Positions 32,899 to 57,173 of a stretch of 64,000 nt of DNA are shown here, piece by piece. Both the position numbers and the translations under genes were made by a program. The stretch comes from Escherichia coli. GTDB lineage: Bacteria; Pseudomonadota; Gammaproteobacteria; Enterobacterales; Enterobacteriaceae. The stretch is taken from assembly GCF_013122565.1 (NCBI RefSeq), contig NZ_CP053258.1. One strand, given 5' to 3'. How positions within the stretch are numbered: position 1 is the first letter of the stretch; the number at the start of each line of letters is the position of its first letter. Under the pieces are notes generated by a model that saw only the letters and a program-made list of their open reading frames with translations, did no database searches and was not told the origin of the DNA.

Positions 32899-33735
32899 TT
32901 AATTATGAATCAAACGCTGCGGATGCGTATAAACCGTCGCCCGACCCGGTTTACAAAAGCCCACCAGCGTCAGATTACAGCGCTCGGCCACTTCCACGGC
33001 AAGTGTGGTCGCGGCAGACACCGCAAACAAAATCTCTACGCCACACATCGCCGACTTTTGCACCATTTCATAACTGGCACGGCTGGAAACCAGTACCGCA
33101 CCTTGCTGCCAGCTTTCCCCTTCTTGTGACCGGCGGCCTAACAGTTTGTCCAGCGCCACATGACGCCCCACGTCTTCATGCCCGCCGACCAGTTCGCCAG
33201 ATGGCAACATCCATGCAGCGGCGTGAGTACAACCAGTCAGTTGCCCCACTGGCTGGAAATCGTTGAGATGACGTAATGCATCATCCAGTTTGTTGAGATC
33301 AAACGTCTGGGTGAACGGTAGCGGCTGCACCGGTTTTCCGATGTCATTAAGTTGCTCCACGCCGCATACACCACAGCCCGTACGTCCCGCCAGCGCCCGG
33401 CGGCGCTCCTTCAACCCCATAAAGCGGCGGCTGGAAAGCTCAATTTGTACTTCAAGACCATTACAGGAAGGAACGACATCCATGCCGAAGATATCGCGCG
33501 GGCTTTCTATAATCCCCTCGGAAAGCGAAAAACCGAGCGCAAAGTACTCAAGGTCTTTGGGCGACGCCATCATCACCACATGCGAAATGCCGTTGTAGAC
33601 CAGCGCAACGGGAACTTCTTCCGCCACCTCATCTAACCGTGGGTGTTGTAAATCATCACGTCGCCATAACACAATTTGACGAACACCTGTGACATTTGTC
33701 ACATTTTCGATTTCTTTTTGCTGTGTTTTTTTCAC
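32899..33735 (-). CDS. fdhD: formate dehydrogenase sulfurtransferase/accessory protein FdhD
   Basis: 278-aa [23 protein letters not shown]... Confidence 0.95.
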
Positions 33736-48184: not shown

Positions 48185-48970
48185 CTACGCGTCTTCTTGG
48201 GGAAGAATGATTTCAATTTGGCTGTCTTGTAAGCGTGATTTTAGCGCAGCGGGCGGCAGCTCGTCGGTAAAGAGCGCGGTGACCTGTGCAACGTTACCAA
48301 TTTCAACCGCCGCCGAAGCATGATACTTAGTGTGATCGGCGACCAGCAGGATATTTCTCGCGTGCGCCATCATCGTTTTCACCACGTTAGCTTCGTTAAC
48401 ATCAAACTCCATCAACGCGCCATCGCTCTCGATTGCGCCTACGCTTGTTACCAGATAATCAGCACGAAAATCGGCCACAAAGGACGCCGCTGAAGGGCCA
48501 ATGATCCCGCTATTATGAGAGCGCAACGTACCGCCGGGCACCATCACTTCAAAGCGCGGGTTGTGGTAAAGAATATGCGCCACACGCAGGCTGTTGGTGA
48601 TTATCCGCAAATGATTATGGTTAAGTAACGCCCGGGCAACATGCTCAACGGTCGTACCAATGGTGATAAATATTGTTGAACCATCAGGAATATAGTCTGC
48701 CACCGCTTCGGCAATCGCTTTTTTTTCCTCGGTTTGCGAAACCTCACGCTGCTCGAACGCCGTATTAACGACGCTGGAAGCCCGACCCGCGCCACCGTGA
48801 TGGCGCGTAATCAGGCCTTGCTCGCTTAATTTACGAATATCCCGGCGCACCGTCTGCGTGGAGACATCCAGCAGATTTGCCAGCTCATCAATATTCATAT
48901 ACCCACGCTCGGCGATCAGCATGAGGAGTTGGTCGTGCCGCGGGTTACCGGTTAGTTCGGTAAGGCTCAT
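48185..48970 (-). CDS. yihW: DeoR-family repressor of the sulfoquinovose operons (CsqR)
   Basis: 261 aa from ATG 48968-48970 (MSLTELTGNPRHDQLLMLIAERGYMNIDELANLLDVSTQTVRRDIRKL…). Confidence 0.88.
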   Translation of the reverse strand: MSLTELTGNPRHDQLLMLIAERGYMNIDELANLLDVSTQTVRRDIRKLSEQGLITRHHGGAGRASSVVNTAFEQREVSQTEEKKAIAEAVADYIPDGSTIFITIGTTVEHVARALLNHNHLRIITNSLRVAHILYHNPRFEVMVPGGTLRSHNSGIIGPSAASFVADFRADYLVTSVGAIESDGALMEFDVNEANVVKTMMAHARNILLVADHTKYHASAAVEIGNVAQVTALFTDELPPAALKSRLQDSQIEIILPQEDA

Positions 48971-49003
48971 GAAAATTCCTCGAAAAACCATCACCCTGGC
49001 ATT

Positions 49004-49900
49004 TTATACAAAAAGTGACAAAAAAGATCGGGTTTGATCACAGTCAGGGATCCCGGCTCGTCCACCGGGACGCGTGCATTTCAACGCCGCTACACCGCTG
49101 GCGAAGCGGACTGACTCCGCTAAATCCCCACCTGTTGCCAGCGCCACCGCCAATGCGCCGTGAAAAACATCACCCGCACCTGTGGTATCTACCACATCAA
49201 CTTTGAAGGCCGGTTGATGTTGACGCCCGCCATTTTCCAGCCAGTCGCAGCCTGCGCTGCCCTGGGTCACATAGACATGACCATTTGTGAGCGTTTGTGC
49301 CTGTTTTAGCGCACTGGCCATCTCTTTCACGCCCGTTAAGCGCGCCAGACCCGGTTCTGAAAAGGCCGCGTGATCGCTTAATGCCACCAGCTCGCTAATA
49401 TCCTGCGGCGTAATGTCCCCGTCCAGAACGGTCATCACGCCCGCCTGCCGGGCCAGGGTGAAGGCTTTTTTAGCACCCTCGTGCCAGCGTACATCTGCCA
49501 GCACAACATCCCACTGAGAGAAATCAATTTCCTCCAACCACTCTGCGTCAGGCAACAGGTCCGGGCTGGGGTAGTTAATGATTATCCGCTCGCCTTTGGC
49601 ATCCACCATGATGGCGGATTGCGAAGATTTCGCCTGGTTATACCGCTTAGTGTAACGGGTGTTAACGCCCCAGGATTCCAGCTCTGCCAGCAGGCTGTTG
49701 CCCGTGTCGTCATCACCTACGCGACCAATAAAATCGACCTGCGCCCCCAGCCTTGCTGCCGCAACCGCTGCCGTCGCCGCTGGCCCGCCACCAACTTCCT
49801 TATAATTTCTCGCCACGTATTTACCGCTCTCCGTCGGTAACCCTTCCACGTAATAGATGCGATCCATCACGGTTATACCTACACAAGCAACACGAATCAT
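49004..49900 (-). CDS. yihV: 6-deoxy-6-sulfofructose kinase (PfkB family)
   Basis: 298 aa from ATG 49898-49900 (MIRVACVGITVMDRIYYVEGLP…; C-terminal TGAGDVF motif). Confidence 0.9.
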   Translation of the reverse strand: MIRVACVGITVMDRIYYVEGLPTESGKYVARNYKEVGGGPAATAAVAAARLGAQVDFIGRVGDDDTGNSLLAELESWGVNTRYTKRYNQAKSSQSAIMVDAKGERIIINYPSPDLLPDAEWLEEIDFSQWDVVLADVRWHEGAKKAFTLARQAGVMTVLDGDITPQDISELVALSDHAAFSEPGLARLTGVKEMASALKQAQTLTNGHVYVTQGSAGCDWLENGGRQHQPAFKVDVVDTTGAGDVFHGALAVALATGGDLAESVRFASGVAALKCTRPGGRAGIPDCDQTRSFLSLFV

Positions 49901-49906
49901 GGTCAT

Positions 49907-50067
49907 TCCTTAAACATTTTGGGATGCGTTCATTTTAATTTCACCAATTGTTTAAAAAGTGACGGCTGTCAATTTTTTGACCATAAATTACAAATACGAT
50001 CAAAAACAGACAATCAAAGCGTGTCATAAATGACAAAAAGTGACATCACTGTATTCAGGAGAAGGTT
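49907..50067. promoter_or_regulatory. yihV/yihUTSR divergent promoter region with candidate CsqR operators
   Basis: palindromes tgtcataaatgaca (50012-50025) and gtgacatcac, repeated aaaaagtgac; CsqR is known to repress here but its site is assigned by inference only. Confidence 0.4.
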
Positions 50068-50964
50068 ATGGCAGCAATCGCGTTTATCGGTTTAGGACAA
50101 ATGGGTTCGCCAATGGCGAGCAATTTATTGCAGCAAGGGCACCAACTTCGCGTCTTTGATGTGAATGCCGAGGCTGTGCGGCATCTGGTAGACAAAGGCG
50201 CGACTCCCGCCGCCAATCCGGCGCAGGCCGCAAAAGATGCCGAATTTATCATTACCATGTTGCCGAATGGCGATCTGGTGCGCAGCGTGTTGTTCGGTGA
50301 AAACGGCGTTTGCGAAAGCTTATCTACCGATGCGCTGGTCATTGATATGTCGACCATCCATCCGCTGCAAACCGATAAATTGATTGCCGATATGCAAGCC
50401 AAAGGCTTCAGCATGATGGATGTTCCGGTAGGCCGTACTTCTGCAAATGCCATTACCGGTACTCTGTTACTGCTGGCTGGCGGCACCGCTGAACAAGTTG
50501 AACGTGCCACGCCGATCCTGATGGCGATGGGCAGTGAGTTGATCAACGCGGGCGGTCCGGGCATGGGGATCCGCGTTAAGCTCATCAACAACTATATGAG
50601 TATCGCGCTCAATGCGCTTTCGGCAGAAGCTGCCGTTTTGTGCGAAGCCCTGAATCTTCCTTTCGATGTTGCCGTCAAGGTGATGAGCGGCACCGCCGCC
50701 GGTAAAGGCCACTTCACCACTTCCTGGCCGAATAAAGTCCTCAGCGGGGATCTTTCTCCCGCCTTCATGATCGATCTTGCCCATAAGGATCTTGGCATCG
50801 CCCTTGATGTCGCCAACCAGCTGCATGTGCCAATGCCGCTGGGGGCCGCCTCGCGGGAGGTTTATAGCCAGGCGCGCGCAGCGGGTCGCGGTCGCCAGGA
50901 CTGGTCCGCCATTCTGGAACAGGTCCGTGTCAGTGCCGGGATGACTGCCAAAGTAAAAATGTAA
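50068..50964 (+). CDS. yihU: 3-sulfolactaldehyde reductase
   Basis: 298-aa ORF with Rossmann motif AFIGLGQMG. Confidence 0.93.
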
Positions 50965-50987
50965 CGACTGGATAAAGGAATAAATGA

Positions 50988-51866
50988 ATGAATAAGTACA
51001 CCATCAACGACATTACGCGCGCATCGGGCGGTTTTGCCATGCTGGCGGTCGATCAGCGCGAAGCCATGCGTATGATGTTTGCCGCGGCAGGGGCACCCGC
51101 TCCGGTAGCCGATAGCGTTTTAACTGATTTCAAAGTTAACGCGGCGAAGACCCTCTCGCCTTATGCCTCGGCGATTCTGGTAGATCAACAATTCTGTTAC
51201 CGCCAGGTGGTTGAGCAAAACGCGATTGCCAAAAGTTGCGCCATGATTGTCGCCGCCGATGAGTTCATTCCTGGCAACGGTATTCCGGTAGATAGCGTGG
51301 TCATTGACCGCAAAATCAATCCGCTACAGATCAAACAAGACGGTGGCAAAGCCTTAAAACTGCTGGTGCTGTGGCGTAGTGATGAAGATGCGCAGCAACG
51401 CCTGGATATGGTGAAAGAGTTTAACGAACTGTGCCACTCACACGGCCTGGTAAGCATTATTGAGCCAGTCGTCCGCCCACCACGTCGTGGCGATAAATTC
51501 GATCGCGAACAAGCGATCATCGATGCTGCCAAAGAGCTGGGCGACAGTGGCGCAGACCTCTACAAAGTTGAAATGCCGCTTTACGGTAAAGGTCCGCAAC
51601 AAGAGCTTCTCAGTGCTTCACAACGTCTGAATGACCATATCAATATGCCGTGGGTGATCCTCTCTTCCGGTGTCGACGAAAAACTGTTCCCGCGTGCCGT
51701 ACGCGTGGCAATGACAGCGGGTGCATCGGGCTTCCTGGCTGGTCGTGCCGTCTGGGCATCGATCGTCGGTTTACCAGACAACGAGCTGATGCTGCGTGAC
51801 GTTTGCGCACCGAAATTACAACAACTTGGCGATATCGTCGACGAAATGATGGCTAAACGCCGCTAA
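50988..51866 (+). CDS. yihT: 6-deoxy-6-sulfofructose-1-phosphate aldolase
   Basis: 292-aa ORF; synteny within the sulfoquinovose cluster. Confidence 0.93.
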
Positions 51867-51881
51867 GATGGGGATACAAAA

Positions 51882-53123
51882 ATGAAATGGTTTAACACCT
51901 TAAGTCACAACCGTTGGCTGGAACAGGAAACCGATCGCATCTTTGATTTTGGTAAAAATTCCGTAGTACCGACCGGATTTGGCTGGTTAGGCAATAAAGG
52001 GCAAATCAAAGAAGAGATGGGCACCCATCTGTGGATCACCGCTCGTATGTTGCACGTTTATTCCGTTGCTGCGGCGATGGGTCGCCCTGGCGCTTACGCG
52101 CTGGTTGATCACGGTATCAAAGCCATGAACGGCGCACTGCGCGATAAAAAATATGGCGGCTGGTATGCCTGTGTGAATGACGAGGGCGTGGTGGATGCCT
52201 CCAAACAAGGCTATCAACACTTCTTTGCTCTGCTGGGTGCCGCCAGCGCCGTCACTACCGGTCACCCGGAAGCACGCAAGCTGCTCGATTACACCATTGA
52301 AATTATTGAAAAATATTTCTGGAGTGAAGAAGAGCAGATGTGCCTGGAGTCGTGGGACGAAGCCTTCAGCAAAACCGAAGAGTACCGCGGCGGCAATGCC
52401 AATATGCACGCGGTGGAAGCCTTCCTGATTGTTTATGACGTAACGCATGACAAAAAATGGCTGGATCGCGCGATTCGCGTGGCTTCTGTGATTATCCACG
52501 ACGTCGCCAGAAATAATCATTATCGCGTTAACGAGCACTTCGATACCCAGTGGAATCCGCTGCCGGATTACAACAAAGATAACCCTGCTCACCGTTTCCG
52601 CGCATTCGGAGGTACTCCGGGCCACTGGATCGAATGGGGCCGTTTAATGCTGCATATCCACGCGGCCCTGGAAGCCCGTTGCGAACAACCGCCAGCATGG
52701 CTGCTAGAAGATGCCAAAGGTCTGTTTAACGCCACCGTGCGTGATGCCTGGGCACCCGATGGTGCGGACGGGATTGTTTATACCGTTGACTGGGAAGGAA
52801 AACCGGTGGTCCGCGAACGTGTGCGTTGGCCTATCGTCGAAGCGATGGGTACGGCCTACGCGCTCTACACCGTCACCGGCGATCGCCAGTACGAAACCTG
52901 GTATCAGACATGGTGGGACTACTGCATTAAGTACCTGATGGACTATGAAAATGGTTCCTGGTGGCAGGAGCTGGATGCGGACAATAAAGTCACCACGAAA
53001 GTCTGGGACGGCAAACAGGATATTTATCACCTGCTGCATTGCCTGGTGATCCCGCGTATCCCGTTAGCACCAGGCCTGGCTCCGGCGGTTGCAGCGGGTC
53101 TGCTGGATATTAACGCGAAATAA
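51882..53123 (+). CDS. yihS: sulfoquinovose isomerase
   Basis: 413-aa ORF; synteny. Confidence 0.93.
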
Positions 53124-53189
53124 CTGACTAAAAAAACGACATATCAGGCTGCACGCCGGGTATGTCGTTATTCAATAAAGGTACCTCGT

Positions 53190-54092
53190 ATGCAAATCAC
53201 CAACATGCATTGCAGTGGACAGACCGTTTCACTTGCCGCGGGGGATTATCACGCGACCATTGTGACCGTCGGTGCAGGTCTGGCTGAATTAACCTTTCAG
53301 GGCTGTCATTTAGTTATTCCGCATAAGCCCGAAGAGATGCCACTGGCACATCTGGGCAAAGTCCTTATTCCGTGGCCGAACCGGATCGCCAACGGCTGTT
53401 ACCGCTATCAGGGGCAGGATTATCAGTTACCCATTAATGAACATGGTTCAAAAGCCGCTATTCATGGGCTGCTCGCCTGGCGTGACTGGCAAATCAGCGA
53501 ATTAACCGCCACCAGCGTTACCCTGACAGCTTTTCTGCCGCCCAGTTACGGCTATCCGTTTATGCTGGCTTCGCAGGTTGTTTATTCGCTCAATGCACGC
53601 ACGGGTCTTTCCGTTGAGATCGCAAGCCAGAATATTGGTACTGTGACCGCACCCTATGGTGTGGGTATTCATCCTTATTTAACCTGCAACTTAACGCCTG
53701 TTGATGACTATGTATTCCAGCTTCCGGCAAACCAGGTTTATGCCGTCGATGAGCACGCGAATCCGACAACGCTTCACCACGTTGATGAGCTGGATTTAAA
53801 TTTCACGCAGGCGAAAAAAATAGCCGCGACAAAAATCGACCACACCTTTAAAACCGCGAATGATCTGTGGGAAATGACCATTACCCATCCAGAGCAAGCG
53901 CTTTCGGTAAGCCTTTGTTCCGATCAACCCTGGGTGCAGGTTTATAGCGGCGAAAAATTACAGCGTCAGGGACTGGCAGTTGAACCTATGAGTTGCCCAC
54001 CTAACGCCTTTAATTCAGGTCTCGACTTATTATTACTGGAACCAGGGAAAACGCACCGCCTGTTTTTTAATATTTACGGGCAGCACAATTAA
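53190..54092 (+). CDS. yihR: aldose-1-epimerase family protein (sulfoquinovose mutarotase)
   Basis: 300-aa ORF; synteny. Confidence 0.88.
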   Translation: MQITNMHCSGQTVSLAAGDYHATIVTVGAGLAELTFQGCHLVIPHKPEEMPLAHLGKVLIPWPNRIANGCYRYQGQDYQLPINEHGSKAAIHGLLAWRDWQISELTATSVTLTAFLPPSYGYPFMLASQVVYSLNARTGLSVEIASQNIGTVTAPYGVGIHPYLTCNLTPVDDYVFQLPANQVYAVDEHANPTTLHHVDELDLNFTQAKKIAATKIDHTFKTANDLWEMTITHPEQALSVSLCSDQPWVQVYSGEKLQRQGLAVEPMSCPPNAFNSGLDLLLLEPGKTHRLFFNIYGQHN

Positions 54093-54152
54093 TTTTATTA
54101 AGAAAAGAACGAGATCATTGTTTAGAGTTGTATTTACGCAACAGGAAATATC

Positions 54153-55028
54153 ATGGACTTTTTTACGTTATTTTCACCGGATGGGGTCATGCTGGAAACA
54201 AACGTGGTATGTATCGTTATCGCGTTAATGTTTCTTTATACCTTTGTGGGGATATGCGCGGGATTTGGCGGTGGTTTAACCACTATGCCGCTCGTCACGT
54301 TAATGCTCCCCGTAAAAATGGCAACTCCGCTCTCGGTGATTGTCGGCACCGCGACCGCCTTGTACGCCACCTGGCTGTCACGTAAAGAAACGGATTGGCG
54401 ATCGGCAATGGTACTGATTATTTTCTCGTTTCTGGGAATACCCGTCGGTTTATATGCGCTGTCATATTTACCCGACCATTTTATGAAAGTGGGCTTAGGC
54501 GGATTCCTTATCCTCTACTCGTTTTATAGTATGTTTATTCCACGCCTGCCGATTTATGACCGCAACTGGATCGCCGCACCTATAGGCGCAGTAGCTGGCG
54601 CATTAGGCGCGGCGTTCTCAACCAACGGACCGCCGATGGTTATCTACGGTATGCTGCGTAACTTAGGCCCGGCGGCATTTCGCGGCACTCTGAACGCTTT
54701 CTTCACCGCAAACAACATCGCGGTGATCGGCGGACTGGCGACCAGCGGAATTTTGACTGTTTCTATCTTTAAACTGGTGCTGTTTTGTATTCCCACCATG
54801 ATCCTCGGTTCACTGGTTGGACAATATGTGCATAAACGCATTTCAGTCAAAGTGTTCCGTGTGATGGTCTTTTTGTTGCTGATTGCCTCCGGTTCTATGT
54901 TGATAAAAGGCGCGCTGGGAATTCCCGCTGCTGCCGCGCTTCTGCCTCCTTTTACCTTGTTAGTTATACTGCAACTGGCATTTGGTAAAAAAGTGGCGGC
55001 AATCCGCCGGGCTGAAGAAAGTAAATAA
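54153..55028 (+). CDS. TauE/SafE-family anion (sulfite/sulfonate) exporter
   Basis: 291-aa polytopic ORF with glycine-rich N-terminal helix (GICAGFGGGLTTMPLV) and an internal duplicated 4-TM architecture; I recall yihR and yihQ as adjacent in K-12. Confidence 0.8.
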   Translation: MDFFTLFSPDGVMLETNVVCIVIALMFLYTFVGICAGFGGGLTTMPLVTLMLPVKMATPLSVIVGTATALYATWLSRKETDWRSAMVLIIFSFLGIPVGLYALSYLPDHFMKVGLGGFLILYSFYSMFIPRLPIYDRNWIAAPIGAVAGALGAAFSTNGPPMVIYGMLRNLGPAAFRGTLNAFFTANNIAVIGGLATSGILTVSIFKLVLFCIPTMILGSLVGQYVHKRISVKVFRVMVFLLLIASGSMLIKGALGIPAAAALLPPFTLLVILQLAFGKKVAAIRRAEESK

Positions 55029-55136
55029 TCACTTATGCGGGTTTTAATTTATACCAGCACCACATTCTTTAATTAATGAAACCTGTAACAACAGGATGGC
55101 ATGAAATATTAGCTTTATACTCTATGGAGATTATTT

Positions 55137-57173
55137 ATGGATACGCCACGCCCACAATTACCAGATTTTCAGTTTCATCAGAATAACGACAGTTTTACCC
55201 TACATTTTCAACAGCGTCTTATTTTAACCCATAGCAAAGATAATCCTTGTTTATGGATTGGTTCAGGTATTGCGGATATCGATATGTTCCGCGGCAATTT
55301 CAGCATTAAAGATAAACTACAGGAGAAAATTGCGCTTACCGACGCCATCGTCAGCCAGTCACCGGATGGTTGGTTAATCCATTTCAGCCGTGGTTCTGAC
55401 ATTAGCGCCACGCTGAATATCTCTGCCGACGATCAGGGCCGTTTATTGCTGGAACTACAAAACGACAACCTTAACCACAACCGTATCTGGCTGCGCCTTG
55501 CCGCTCAACCAGAGGACCATATCTACGGCTGCGGCGAACAGTTTTCCTACTTCGATCTGCGCGGCAAACCGTTCCCGCTATGGACCAGTGAACAAGGCGT
55601 TGGTCGCAACAAACAAACCTATGTCACCTGGCAGGCCGACTGCAAAGAAAATGCGGGCGGCGACTATTACTGGACTTTCTTCCCACAGCCTACGTTTGTC
55701 AGCACGCAGAAGTATTACTGCCATGTTAATAACAGTTGCTACATGAACTTCGACTTTAGCGCCCCGGAATACCATGAACTGGCGCTGTGGGAAGACAAAG
55801 CTACGCTACGTTTTGAATGTGCTGACACATACATCTCCCTGCTGGAAAAATTAACTGCCCTGCTGGGACGCCAGCCAGAACTGCCCGACTGGATTTATGA
55901 CGGGGTAACGTTCGGCATTCAGGGCGGGACGGAAGTGTGCCAGAAGAAACTGGACACCATGCGTAACGCGGGCGTGAAAGTCAACGGCATCTGGGCGCAG
56001 GACTGGTCCGGGATCCGTATGACCTCTTTTGGCAAGCGCGTAATGTGGAACTGGAAGTGGAACAGCGAAAACTACCCGCAACTGGATTCACGCATTAAGC
56101 AGTGGAATCAGGAGGGCGTGCAGTTCCTGGCCTATATCAACCCGTATGTAGCCAGCGATAAAGATCTCTGCGAAGAGGCGGCAAAGCGCGGTTATCTGGC
56201 AAAAGATGCCTCTGGCGGTGACTATCTGGTGGAGTTTGGCGAGTTTTACGGCGGCGTTGTCGATCTCACTAATCCGGAAGCCTACGCCTGGTTCAAGGAA
56301 GTTATCAAAAAGAACATGATTGAACTCGGCTGCGGCGGCTGGATGGCTGACTTCGGCGAGTATCTGCCCACCGACACTTACCTGCATAACGGCGTCAGCG
56401 CGGAAATTATGCATAACGCCTGGCCTGCGCTGTGGGCGAAGTGTAACTACGAAGCCCTTGAAGAAACGGGCAAGCTCGGCGAGATCCTTTTCTTTATGCG
56501 CGCCGGTTCTACCGGTAGCCAGAAATACTCCACCATGATGTGGGCGGGCGACCAGAACGTCGACTGGAGTCTCGACGATGGCCTGGCGTCGGTTGTCCCG
56601 GCGGCGCTGTCGCTGGCAATGACCGGACATGGCCTGCATCACAGCGACATTGGCGGTTACACCACCCTGTTTGAGATGAAGCGCAGCAAAGAGCTGCTGC
56701 TGCGCTGGTGCGATTTCAGCGCCTTCACGCCGATGATGCGCACCCACGAAGGTAACCGTCCGGGCGACAACTGGCAGTTTGACGGCGACGCGGAAACTAT
56801 CGCCCATTTCGCCCGTATGACCACCGTCTTCACCACCCTGAAACCTTACCTGAAAGAGGCCGTCGCGCTGAATGCGAAGTCTGGCCTACCGGTTATGCGC
56901 CCGCTGTTCCTTCATTACGAAGACGATGCGCACACTTACACCCTGAAATATCAGTACCTGTTAGGTCGCGACATTCTGGTCGCTCCGGTGCATGAAGAAG
57001 GCCGTAGCGACTGGACGCTCTATCTACCGGAGGATAACTGGGTCCACGCCTGGACGGGTGAAGCGTTCCGGGGCGGGGAAGTTACCGTTAATGCGCCCAT
57101 CGGCAAGCCGCCGGTCTTTTATCGCGCCGATAGCGAATGGGCGGCACTGTTCGCGTCGTTAAAAAGCATCTAA
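55137..57173 (+). CDS. yihQ: sulfoquinovosidase (GH31)
   Basis: 678-aa ORF; GH31-like WAQDWSG / GGWMADFGE motifs. Confidence 0.93.
   Translation: MDTPRPQLPDFQFHQNNDSFTLHFQQRLILTHSKDNPCLWIGSGIADIDMFRGNFSIKDKLQEKIALTDAIVSQSPDGWLIHFSRGSDISATLNISADDQGRLLLELQNDNLNHNRIWLRLAAQPEDHIYGCGEQFSYFDLRGKPFPLWTSEQGVGRNKQTYVTWQADCKENAGGDYYWTFFPQPTFVSTQKYYCHVNNSCYMNFDFSAPEYHELALWEDKATLRFECADTYISLLEKLTALLGRQPELPDWIYDGVTFGIQGGTEVCQKKLDTMRNAGVKVNGIWAQDWSGIRMTSFGKRVMWNWKWNSENYPQLDSRIKQWNQEGVQFLAYINPYVASDKDLCEEAAKRGYLAKDASGGDYLVEFGEFYGGVVDLTNPEAYAWFKEVIKKNMIELGCGGWMADFGEYLPTDTYLHNGVSAEIMHNAWPALWAKCNYEALEETGKLGEILFFMRAGSTGSQKYSTMMWAGDQNVDWSLDDGLASVVPAALSLAMTGHGLHHSDIGGYTTLFEMKRSKELLLRWCDFSAFTPMMRTHEGNRPGDNWQFDGDAETIAHFARMTTVFTTLKPYLKEAVALNAKSGLPVMRPLFLHYEDDAHTYTLKYQYLLGRDILVAPVHEEGRSDWTLYLPEDNWVHAWTGEAFRGGEVTVNAPIGKPPVFYRADSEWAALFASLKSI

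Follow-up and report, generated by a model that had tools for sequence, protein, structure and literature searches.

Which bases does the repressor CsqR (YihW) read in the spacer between the divergently transcribed sulfoquinovose genes yihV and yihU? In the 64,000-nt stretch of Escherichia coli DNA analysed here (the window), an earlier reading made from the letters alone (the sequence-only reading) had recognized this spacer and, by eye, pointed to two palindromes and a repeated motif as candidate CsqR operators. CsqR regulation of the divergent yihUTS and yihV-csqR operons has been described for K-12 (Shimada et al. 2019; Kaznadzey et al. 2018; Gao et al. 2021). According to published reports, the K-12 yihU/yihV spacer is bound by CsqR in gSELEX, EMSA and ChIP-exo, the binding being strong at this spacer and weaker upstream of csqR. 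They further describe the release of CsqR by sulfoquinovose (SQ), SQ-glycerol and sulforhamnose, SQ-reversible binding to both K-12 and Nissle fragments, and cooperative multimeric loading of CsqR into large complexes, as observed by EMSA and AFM. A full-text literature search, which included literal operator strings and covered publications other than Shimada et al. 2019, found no base-level CsqR box or site sequence in the K-12 CsqR literature, whereas the Sites A, B, C and W described below are inferred here.

The yihV/yihU control region

The yih (sulfo-EMP, sulfoquinovose) cassette occupies positions 48185-57173 of the window in inverted orientation compared to K-12, with yihT, yihS, yihR and yihQ following yihU (Table 1). 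The names csqR, yihV and yihU were taken from the RefSeq annotation of near-identical E. coli genomes. This annotation, the open reading frames and the score of YihU against the NCBIfam equivalog NF012005 (603 bits, above the cut-off of 348) affirm the yihV/yihU divergent promoter as the locus named by the sequence-only reading. The spacer length of 160 bp given there holds if counted from an upstream in-frame ATG, but the RefSeq length is 167 bp. The spacer has a GC content of 33% and differs from that of K-12 MG1655 by five substitutions, at 49982, 50014, 50021, 50047 and 50063, all of which fall outside the conserved (T/A)GACA cores, with 49982 ending a weak flanking unit.

The csqR product is 100% identical to the K-12 CsqR protein. 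It combines a DeoR-type N-terminal wHTH with a DeoR C-terminal effector domain that matches PDB 7l6l; its best NCBIfam similarity is to DeoR/GlpR models, and similarity extends over the full length of the GlpR, AgaR, SrlR, UlaR and DeoR models. The earlier description of CsqR as a DeoR-family repressor that binds the spacer and its own promoter agrees with the published gSELEX, EMSA and ChIP-exo data. Positions 49901-50067 are the CsqR control region of the sulfoquinovose genes, which is already known, and no new system is added; locus and repressor are the same as in K-12 and the spacer is 97% identical, and the published binding, derepression and loading apply.

Of the 5426 complete E. coli genomes, no more than 12 match the csqR-yihV-yihU segment (48185-50964) at 99% identity or above, most matching at 95-99%, and a further 1327 genomes carry a short (Nissle-type) cassette alone. 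Because such close matches are few, the long cassette in the window belongs to an uncommon lineage of alleles.

Table 1. Genes, conserved blocks, repeats and proposed sites, with their positions in the window.
Feature	Position	Strand	Remarks
csqR (yihW), DeoR/GlpR-family repressor gene	48185..48970	-	RefSeq annotation, genomes 99.7% identical
yihV, sulfofructose kinase	49004..49900	-	RefSeq start 49900; ORF list extends to 49906
yihU, sulfolactaldehyde reductase, first gene of yihUTS	50068..50964	+	NCBIfam NF012005
yihV/yihU divergent control region, known CsqR target	49901..50067		167 bp, 97% identical to the K-12 spacer
Near-invariant core, ~80 bp	49931..50012		92% identity to window, 51 loci
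Stretch following the core	50013..50030		43% identity to window, 51 loci
Left palindrome arm TGTCA	50022..50026		22% identity to window, 51 loci
TGACA pentamer	50031..50035		94.5% identity to window, 51 loci
TGACA pentamer	50041..50045		97% identity to window, 51 loci
14-bp palindrome TGTCATAAATGACA (TGTCAT-AA-ATGACA)	50022..50035		left arm lineage-specific
Near-palindrome GTGACATCAC	50040..50049		conservation limited to the GTGACA part
Direct repeat AAAAAGTGAC	49954..49963 and 50035..50044	+	exact 10-nt copies
Likely yihV -10 hexamer TAAAAT	49931..49936	-	read from sequence, 7-9 nt upstream of the start; invariant
Site A: ATAAATTACA, AATACGATCA, AAAACAGACA	49983..50012	+	three 10-bp-phased units within the ChIP-exo interval; proposed primary CsqR operator
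Site B: ATAAATGACA, AAAAGTGACA	50026..50045	+	two TGACA units 10 bp apart; proposed from conservation and cross-prediction
Site C: inverted pair AAAAAGTGAC-GGCT-GTCAATTTTT	49954..49977		proposed; arms invariant, 58 spacers
Site C unit AAAAGTGACG	49955..49964	+
Site C unit AAAATTGACA	49967..49976	-
Site W: ATTTTATACA, AAAAGTGACA, AAAAAGATCG	49001..49030	+	proposed autoregulatory operator, csqR promoter

In vivo binding, conservation and a proposed array of units

The YihW ChIP-exo list of Gao et al. 2021, mapped on NC_000913.2, contains a site (site 8) at 4071641-4071681 with a signal-to-noise ratio (S/N) of 168 and yihV as the nearest gene. The shift from NC_000913.2 to NC_000913.3 was determined as 1977 bp from the difference in genome length, with an uncertainty of ±2 bp, and agrees with the data of Kaznadzey et al., in which the U00096.2 position 4071737 is the yihV -25/-27 start. 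After conversion the ChIP-exo interval extends from yihU -47 to -87, corresponding to window positions 49981-50021 (±2), where it sits inside the conserved core, abuts the left edge of the 14-bp palindrome and holds none of the motifs named by the sequence-only reading. Comparison with published footprints had been suggested as the check on the palindromes, and this footprint maps elsewhere in the spacer. The units within the interval are all degenerate (TTACA, GATCA and AGACA), with no exact copy of AAAAAGTGAC among them.

The same ChIP-exo table lists no separate peak at the csqR promoter. It includes weak YihW peaks at two further K-12 promoters, that of ssuEADCB, the sulfonate-sulfur operon (NC_000913.2 996770-996800, upstream of ssuE; S/N 8.2), and that of glpA, which is under GlpR control (NC_000913.2 2350653-2350658; S/N 13.7). 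In sequence, both contain loose GACA-like strings only.

Orthologous loci were collected by a scan of species-representative genomes with CsqR, which yielded 67 loci, 57 of them with syntenic yihU, yihV and csqR and a recoverable spacer. The orthologues range from Escherichia to Pantoea, Pectobacterium, Buttiauxella and Leminorella. Spacer counts refer to n = 58, and identity figures to a set of 51 loci in which the coding DNA on either side shares less than 85% identity with the window (mean 74%, third positions 48%). The core of the spacer is near-invariant across these loci (Table 1), and in the variable yihU-proximal part the two TGACA pentamers alone are conserved, with flanks at ~43%. 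At the other end of yihV, the csqR-proximal block CTGTGATCAAACCCGnTCTTTTyTGTCACTTTTTGTATAAAATG is coding yet shows no wobble variation, while the codons upstream of it vary at third positions. Conservation alone cannot divide the core into sub-sites; the core would also have to accommodate two promoters and a putative CRP site. An RNA element as the cause of core conservation is not supported, as an Rfam scan of 49700-50300 (E ≤ 1) found no RNA family and the invariant columns give no covariation. The invariant core also includes a mini-ORF of four codons (TTG TTT AAA AAG TGA) at 49948-49962 on the plus strand, with ATG as first codon in most other genera, which is probably a mere by-product of the operator and promoter sequence.

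Three units in tandem, proposed as Site A, lie within the ChIP-exo interval and overlap the published yihU start at -62/-63; the complete 30-mer is identical in 38 of the 58 spacers. Site B resembles Site A minus the middle unit and matches the direct repeats D1 and D2. It spans the right palindrome arm, the right copy of AAAAAGTGAC and the GTGACA of the near-palindrome, and is the only place in the window with an exact TGACA-N5-TGACA; allowing 1 mismatch, this pattern is not enriched window-wide (3 found, 3.3 expected), so that the weight lies with the exact copy and its conservation. Site C includes the left copy of AAAAAGTGAC and a reverse copy with 1 mismatch, its arms being invariant across the 58 spacers, whereas positions 49964-66 within the 4-nt centre vary. 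Site W overlaps the last yihV codons and the csqR -10 region.

The repeated motif of the sequence-only reading connects these sites. An exact 10-nt direct repeat arises within the spacer with P ~0.04 in dinucleotide-preserving shuffles, and a third exact copy, AAAAAGTGACA (that is AAAAAGTGAC(A)), is found at 49010-49020, in the last yihV codons directly upstream of csqR. The 64-kb window holds these three exact copies of AAAAAGTGAC only. Likewise, AAAAANTGACA has exactly three exact matches in the window (49010+, 49967- and 50035+), all within the two regions reported to be bound by CsqR. The left AAAAAGTGAC copy of the spacer is retained in 46 of 58 spacers and the right one in 6, although the TGACA of the latter is kept in 51.

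Units were delimited by eye before scoring, and cross-prediction was run as a test. When both strands of the 64 kb were scored with a matrix derived solely from Sites B and W, Site A ranked first among the untrained tandem triples (24.5 bits; next unrelated hit 16.8), and a matrix of the Site A units only placed Site B first among the untrained tandem pairs. A ten-unit matrix comprising Sites A, B, C and W, from which the weak flanking unit TTTTTTGACC was excluded, detected 123 tandem pairs of at least 17 bits in yihU/V spacers, 58 in csqR promoters and none elsewhere in 517 kb of orthologous loci; these matches are homologous to the training sites and gauge specificity rather than representing independent discovery. 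Within the window, tandem pairs of this strength number five, each belonging to Site A, B or W. The ~10-bp periodicity of the units (49983/49993/50003, 50026/50036 and 49001/49011/49021) is specific to the two promoter regions, as judged from the 517 kb and the 64-kb window.

We favor, at a probability of about 0.6, an operator that consists of an array of 10-bp-phased, A-rich (T/A)GACA units and not of the palindromes. Contact of CsqR in vivo is documented by cross-linking at Site A; TGACA would act as the half-site, and Sites B, C and W are predicted to be contacted as well. Conserved TGACA units underlie the AAAAAGTGAC repeat and the right arm of the palindrome, and these units probably serve CsqR as auxiliary sites. 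The by-eye site assignment thereby retains some of its content, as the AAAAAGTGAC repeat, the right palindrome arm and the GTGACA of the near-palindrome do coincide with conserved TGACA units, but the dyads themselves do not hold up.

In the mechanism that we propose, a CsqR operator unit would be an A-rich stretch ending in (T/A)GACA, or in the degenerate forms TTACA or GATCA. Site A would place three head-to-tail units over the upstream yihU start and correspond to the site cross-linked in vivo, while Site B would provide two head-to-tail units between this start and the yihU Shine-Dalgarno sequence. Site C would consist of two inverted units covering a CRP-like site halfway between the divergent starts, and the three units of Site W would cover the csqR core promoter between a proposed CRP site and the -10 element (TATAAAAT), leading to autorepression. 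Positioned one helical turn apart, the units would bring the wHTH domains of CsqR to the same face of the helix and permit cooperative multimeric loading. Loaded CsqR would block RNA polymerase, and probably CRP too, until its release by SQ, SQ-glycerol or sulforhamnose results in derepression. In its most extended form, to which we give somewhat less than even odds, the model has CsqR read a non-palindromic, filament-type operator. The yihV/yihU spacer would then hold no fewer than eight (T/A)GACA units with 10-bp phasing across ~90 bp and the csqR promoter another three, and a single CRP site used by both divergent class II promoters would be interspersed among the units. On this reading the entire ~80-bp core would be preserved nearly unaltered throughout Enterobacterales, in long and short yih cassettes alike. 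Should this hold, it would give the CsqR box its first base-level definition and account for the cooperative 'aggregates' observed by AFM.

Promoter elements and competing explanations

Kaznadzey et al. reported transcription starts of yihV at -25/-27 and of yihU at -15, -25, -35, -62/-63 and -82/-92, and binding of CRP to both fragments, with CRP shifting the yihU/V fragment. The yihV starts at -25/-27 correspond to window positions 49925-49927 and the yihU start at -62 to 50006. As scanning the spacer for sigma-70 promoter and terminator consensus sequences returned no matches, promoter elements were placed from these published start sites. The hexamer TAAAAT is the likely -10 element of yihV (Table 1), and that of the yihU -62/-63 start is likely TACGAT at 49995-50000, which is covered by Site A.

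Site C can also be read as a CRP site, AGTGA-N6-TCAAT, with 3 mismatches to TGTGA-N6-TCACA, a quality of match found 198 times in the window against 219 expected. Its centre at 49965.5 is the midpoint between the yihV -25 (49925) and yihU -62 (50006) starts, ~40.5 bp from each. Given this midway position, the CRP-like reading and the lack of a consensus sigma-70 promoter in the spacer, it is plausible on positional grounds that one CRP dimer serves two divergent class II promoters and is overlapped by CsqR units. Within the would-be CRP spacer, C49963 is kept in 53 of 58 spacers and G49968 in all 58, and this conservation fits TGAC/GTCA units better than the loosely specified spacer of a CRP site.

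Near the csqR promoter, CTGTGATCAAACCCGATC (49020-49050, minus strand) at the 3' end of yihV is coding but free of wobble variation, with a perfect left half TGTGA and a poor right half, and probably represents the CRP site assigned by Kaznadzey et al. to -41.5 of the csqR promoter. Elsewhere in the window, a perfect CRP core consensus, TGTGACATTTGTCACA, is located at 33688-33703 and constitutes the sole exact match to TGTGA-N6-TCACA (0 mismatches).

These promoter features bear on an explanation that we regard as unlikely but as the strongest of the alternatives, in which CsqR contacts Site A alone and the other TGACA and AAAAAGTGAC elements are promoter and CRP DNA (one class II CRP site at 49955-49976 serving both promoters, along with elements resembling -35 or UP sequences) that look alike as A-rich promoter DNA. 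The placement of AGTGA-N6-TCAAT relative to both published starts, the lack of a consensus sigma-70 promoter, which suggests activator dependence, and the single interval in the ChIP-exo list are all in line with it; moreover, TGACA matches the -35 hexamer in 5 of 6 positions, and AAAAAGTGA looks like half of a CRP site. However, a CRP match as good as that of Site C is expected by chance, and the two conserved bases in its spacer argue against a CRP site as the sole content of Site C. At Site B most genera have ATGACA instead of GTGA, leaving no CRP half-site, and several Enterobacter copies of Site B abut the ribosome-binding site, too near to serve as -35 element of yihU. The csqR promoter repeats the exact 11-mer AAAAAGTGACA, flanked there by the proposed CRP site and the -10 element, and Site A on the one hand and Sites B and W on the other predict each other.

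Still less probable is a mainly architectural cause of the core conservation, in which binding of IHF or Fis together with A-tract bending would bring separate CsqR sites together in a DNA loop, as occurs elsewhere in the DeoR family. The IHF consensus is WATCAANNNNTTR, to which TGTCAATTTTTTG (49967-49979) comes near. Phased A/T tracts are abundant in the region, and DeoR-family relatives are oligomeric (UlaR tetramer, DeoR octamer). Yet such a model leaves both the recurrence of AAAAAGTGACA at three places and the TGACA-only footprint at Site B unexplained.

There remain the palindromes. Every string listed by the sequence-only reading (TGTCATAAATGACA, GTGACATCAC and AAAAAGTGAC) is present in the spacer, the 14-bp palindrome being an imperfect one in which 6-bp arms (TGTCAT and ATGACA) flank an AA centre. 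Neither palindrome exceeds chance, because equally good inverted repeats (perfect arms of at least 6 bp, spacer of 0-10) were obtained in 57% of 2000 dinucleotide-preserving shuffles of the spacer. The 14-mer is retained in 3 of the 58 orthologous spacers (the window, K-12 and E. whittamii) and GTGACATCAC in 2, K-12 having GTGACATAAC instead. Conservation of the right arm TGACA (94-97%) stands against that of the left arm, and the conserved core dyads are spaced differently (TGAC-N4-GTCA and GTCA-N6-TGAC) from the palindrome (GTCA-N4-TGAC). Furthermore, the short cassette lacks the 14-bp palindrome in its spacer even though the regulator wHTH is conserved there. With the ChIP-exo interval lying to the left, a CsqR dimer bound near the yihU start to the dyad TGTCATAAATGACA, and perhaps to GTGACATCAC, is very improbable, although both strings exist, the right arm ATGACA is conserved, the uncertainty of ±2 bp lets the ChIP-exo border touch the left edge of the palindrome and DeoR-family repressors have often been described with semi-palindromic operators. 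EMSA or mutagenesis experiments designed around the two palindromes would probably not hit the actual operator; the site assignment is redirected to the conserved, cross-linked stretch 49983-50012 and the TGACA pairs at 50026-50045 and 49001-30.

Related operators, the short cassette and cassette gene content

The closest characterized paralogue by NCBIfam score, E. coli GlpR, shares the DeoR/GlpR-type wHTH and a sugar-phosphate-binding fold with CsqR, which scores 256 bits on the GlpR equivalog, below the cut-off of 331. GlpR sites follow the consensus WATGTTCGWT and are arranged as multiple adjacent 10-bp half-sites, with a GAACA-type pentamer resembling TGACA. The two regulators differ in this pentamer and in their effector, which is glycerol-3-P for GlpR and a sulfosugar for CsqR. 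According to published work, GlpR acts alongside CRP at catabolic promoters. E. coli DeoR, a repressor of the same family, occludes the core promoter and acts with CRP, as proposed here for CsqR. However, DeoR uses a true 16-bp palindrome over the deo -10 region together with long-range looping, whereas in the yihV/yihU spacer the palindromes are unconserved and the units mostly head-to-tail. The symmetry class of Sites A, B and W is also found in the DeoR-family RhaR regulators, with two imperfect direct repeats at 10-11 bp periodicity (Rodionova et al. 2013, PMC3870299), although these regulators are not orthologous to CsqR and their motifs are computational predictions of unrelated sequence.

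The short cassette, which shows 60-80% nucleotide identity to the long one (a value of 66% was also obtained), offers a paralogous comparison. Its spacer retains TTTTTGAACATAAATTACAAATATGCTCAAAAACAGAC, that is the ChIP-exo interval in almost unaltered form, with the core part 49974-50011 kept; Site A and the W2 unit are likewise retained, and the promoter of its regulator retains AAAGTGACAAAAATGAT. Its yihU-proximal part contains a pair of TGACA units with a 10-bp offset, on the strand opposite to that of Site B in the window. The regulators of the long and the short cassette are 72% identical overall but nearly identical across the N-terminal wHTH, which fits the published cross-binding of the K-12 spacer by the short-cassette regulator. 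A defined CsqR box would help to explain why the short cassette does not respond to SQ, and would aid both the prediction of sulfoglycolysis regulons in other Enterobacterales and the design of SQ-responsive reporters.

An 885-bp contig labelled Bacillus coahuilensis m4-4 (NZ_ABFU01000106.1) encodes CsqR residues 52-261 with 100% identity to E. coli, and is almost certainly an E. coli contamination of that assembly. Within the cassette of the window, a gene for a TauE/SafE-family protein (sulfite/sulfonate exporter; 291 aa) is located at 54153-55028 on the plus strand, between yihR and yihQ. It is missing from K-12 and from strain CP52E, the closest genome in the csqR-yihU segment, and is present in 1296 of 5426 complete E. 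coli genomes (~24%); its product could export a sulfonate product such as DHPS.
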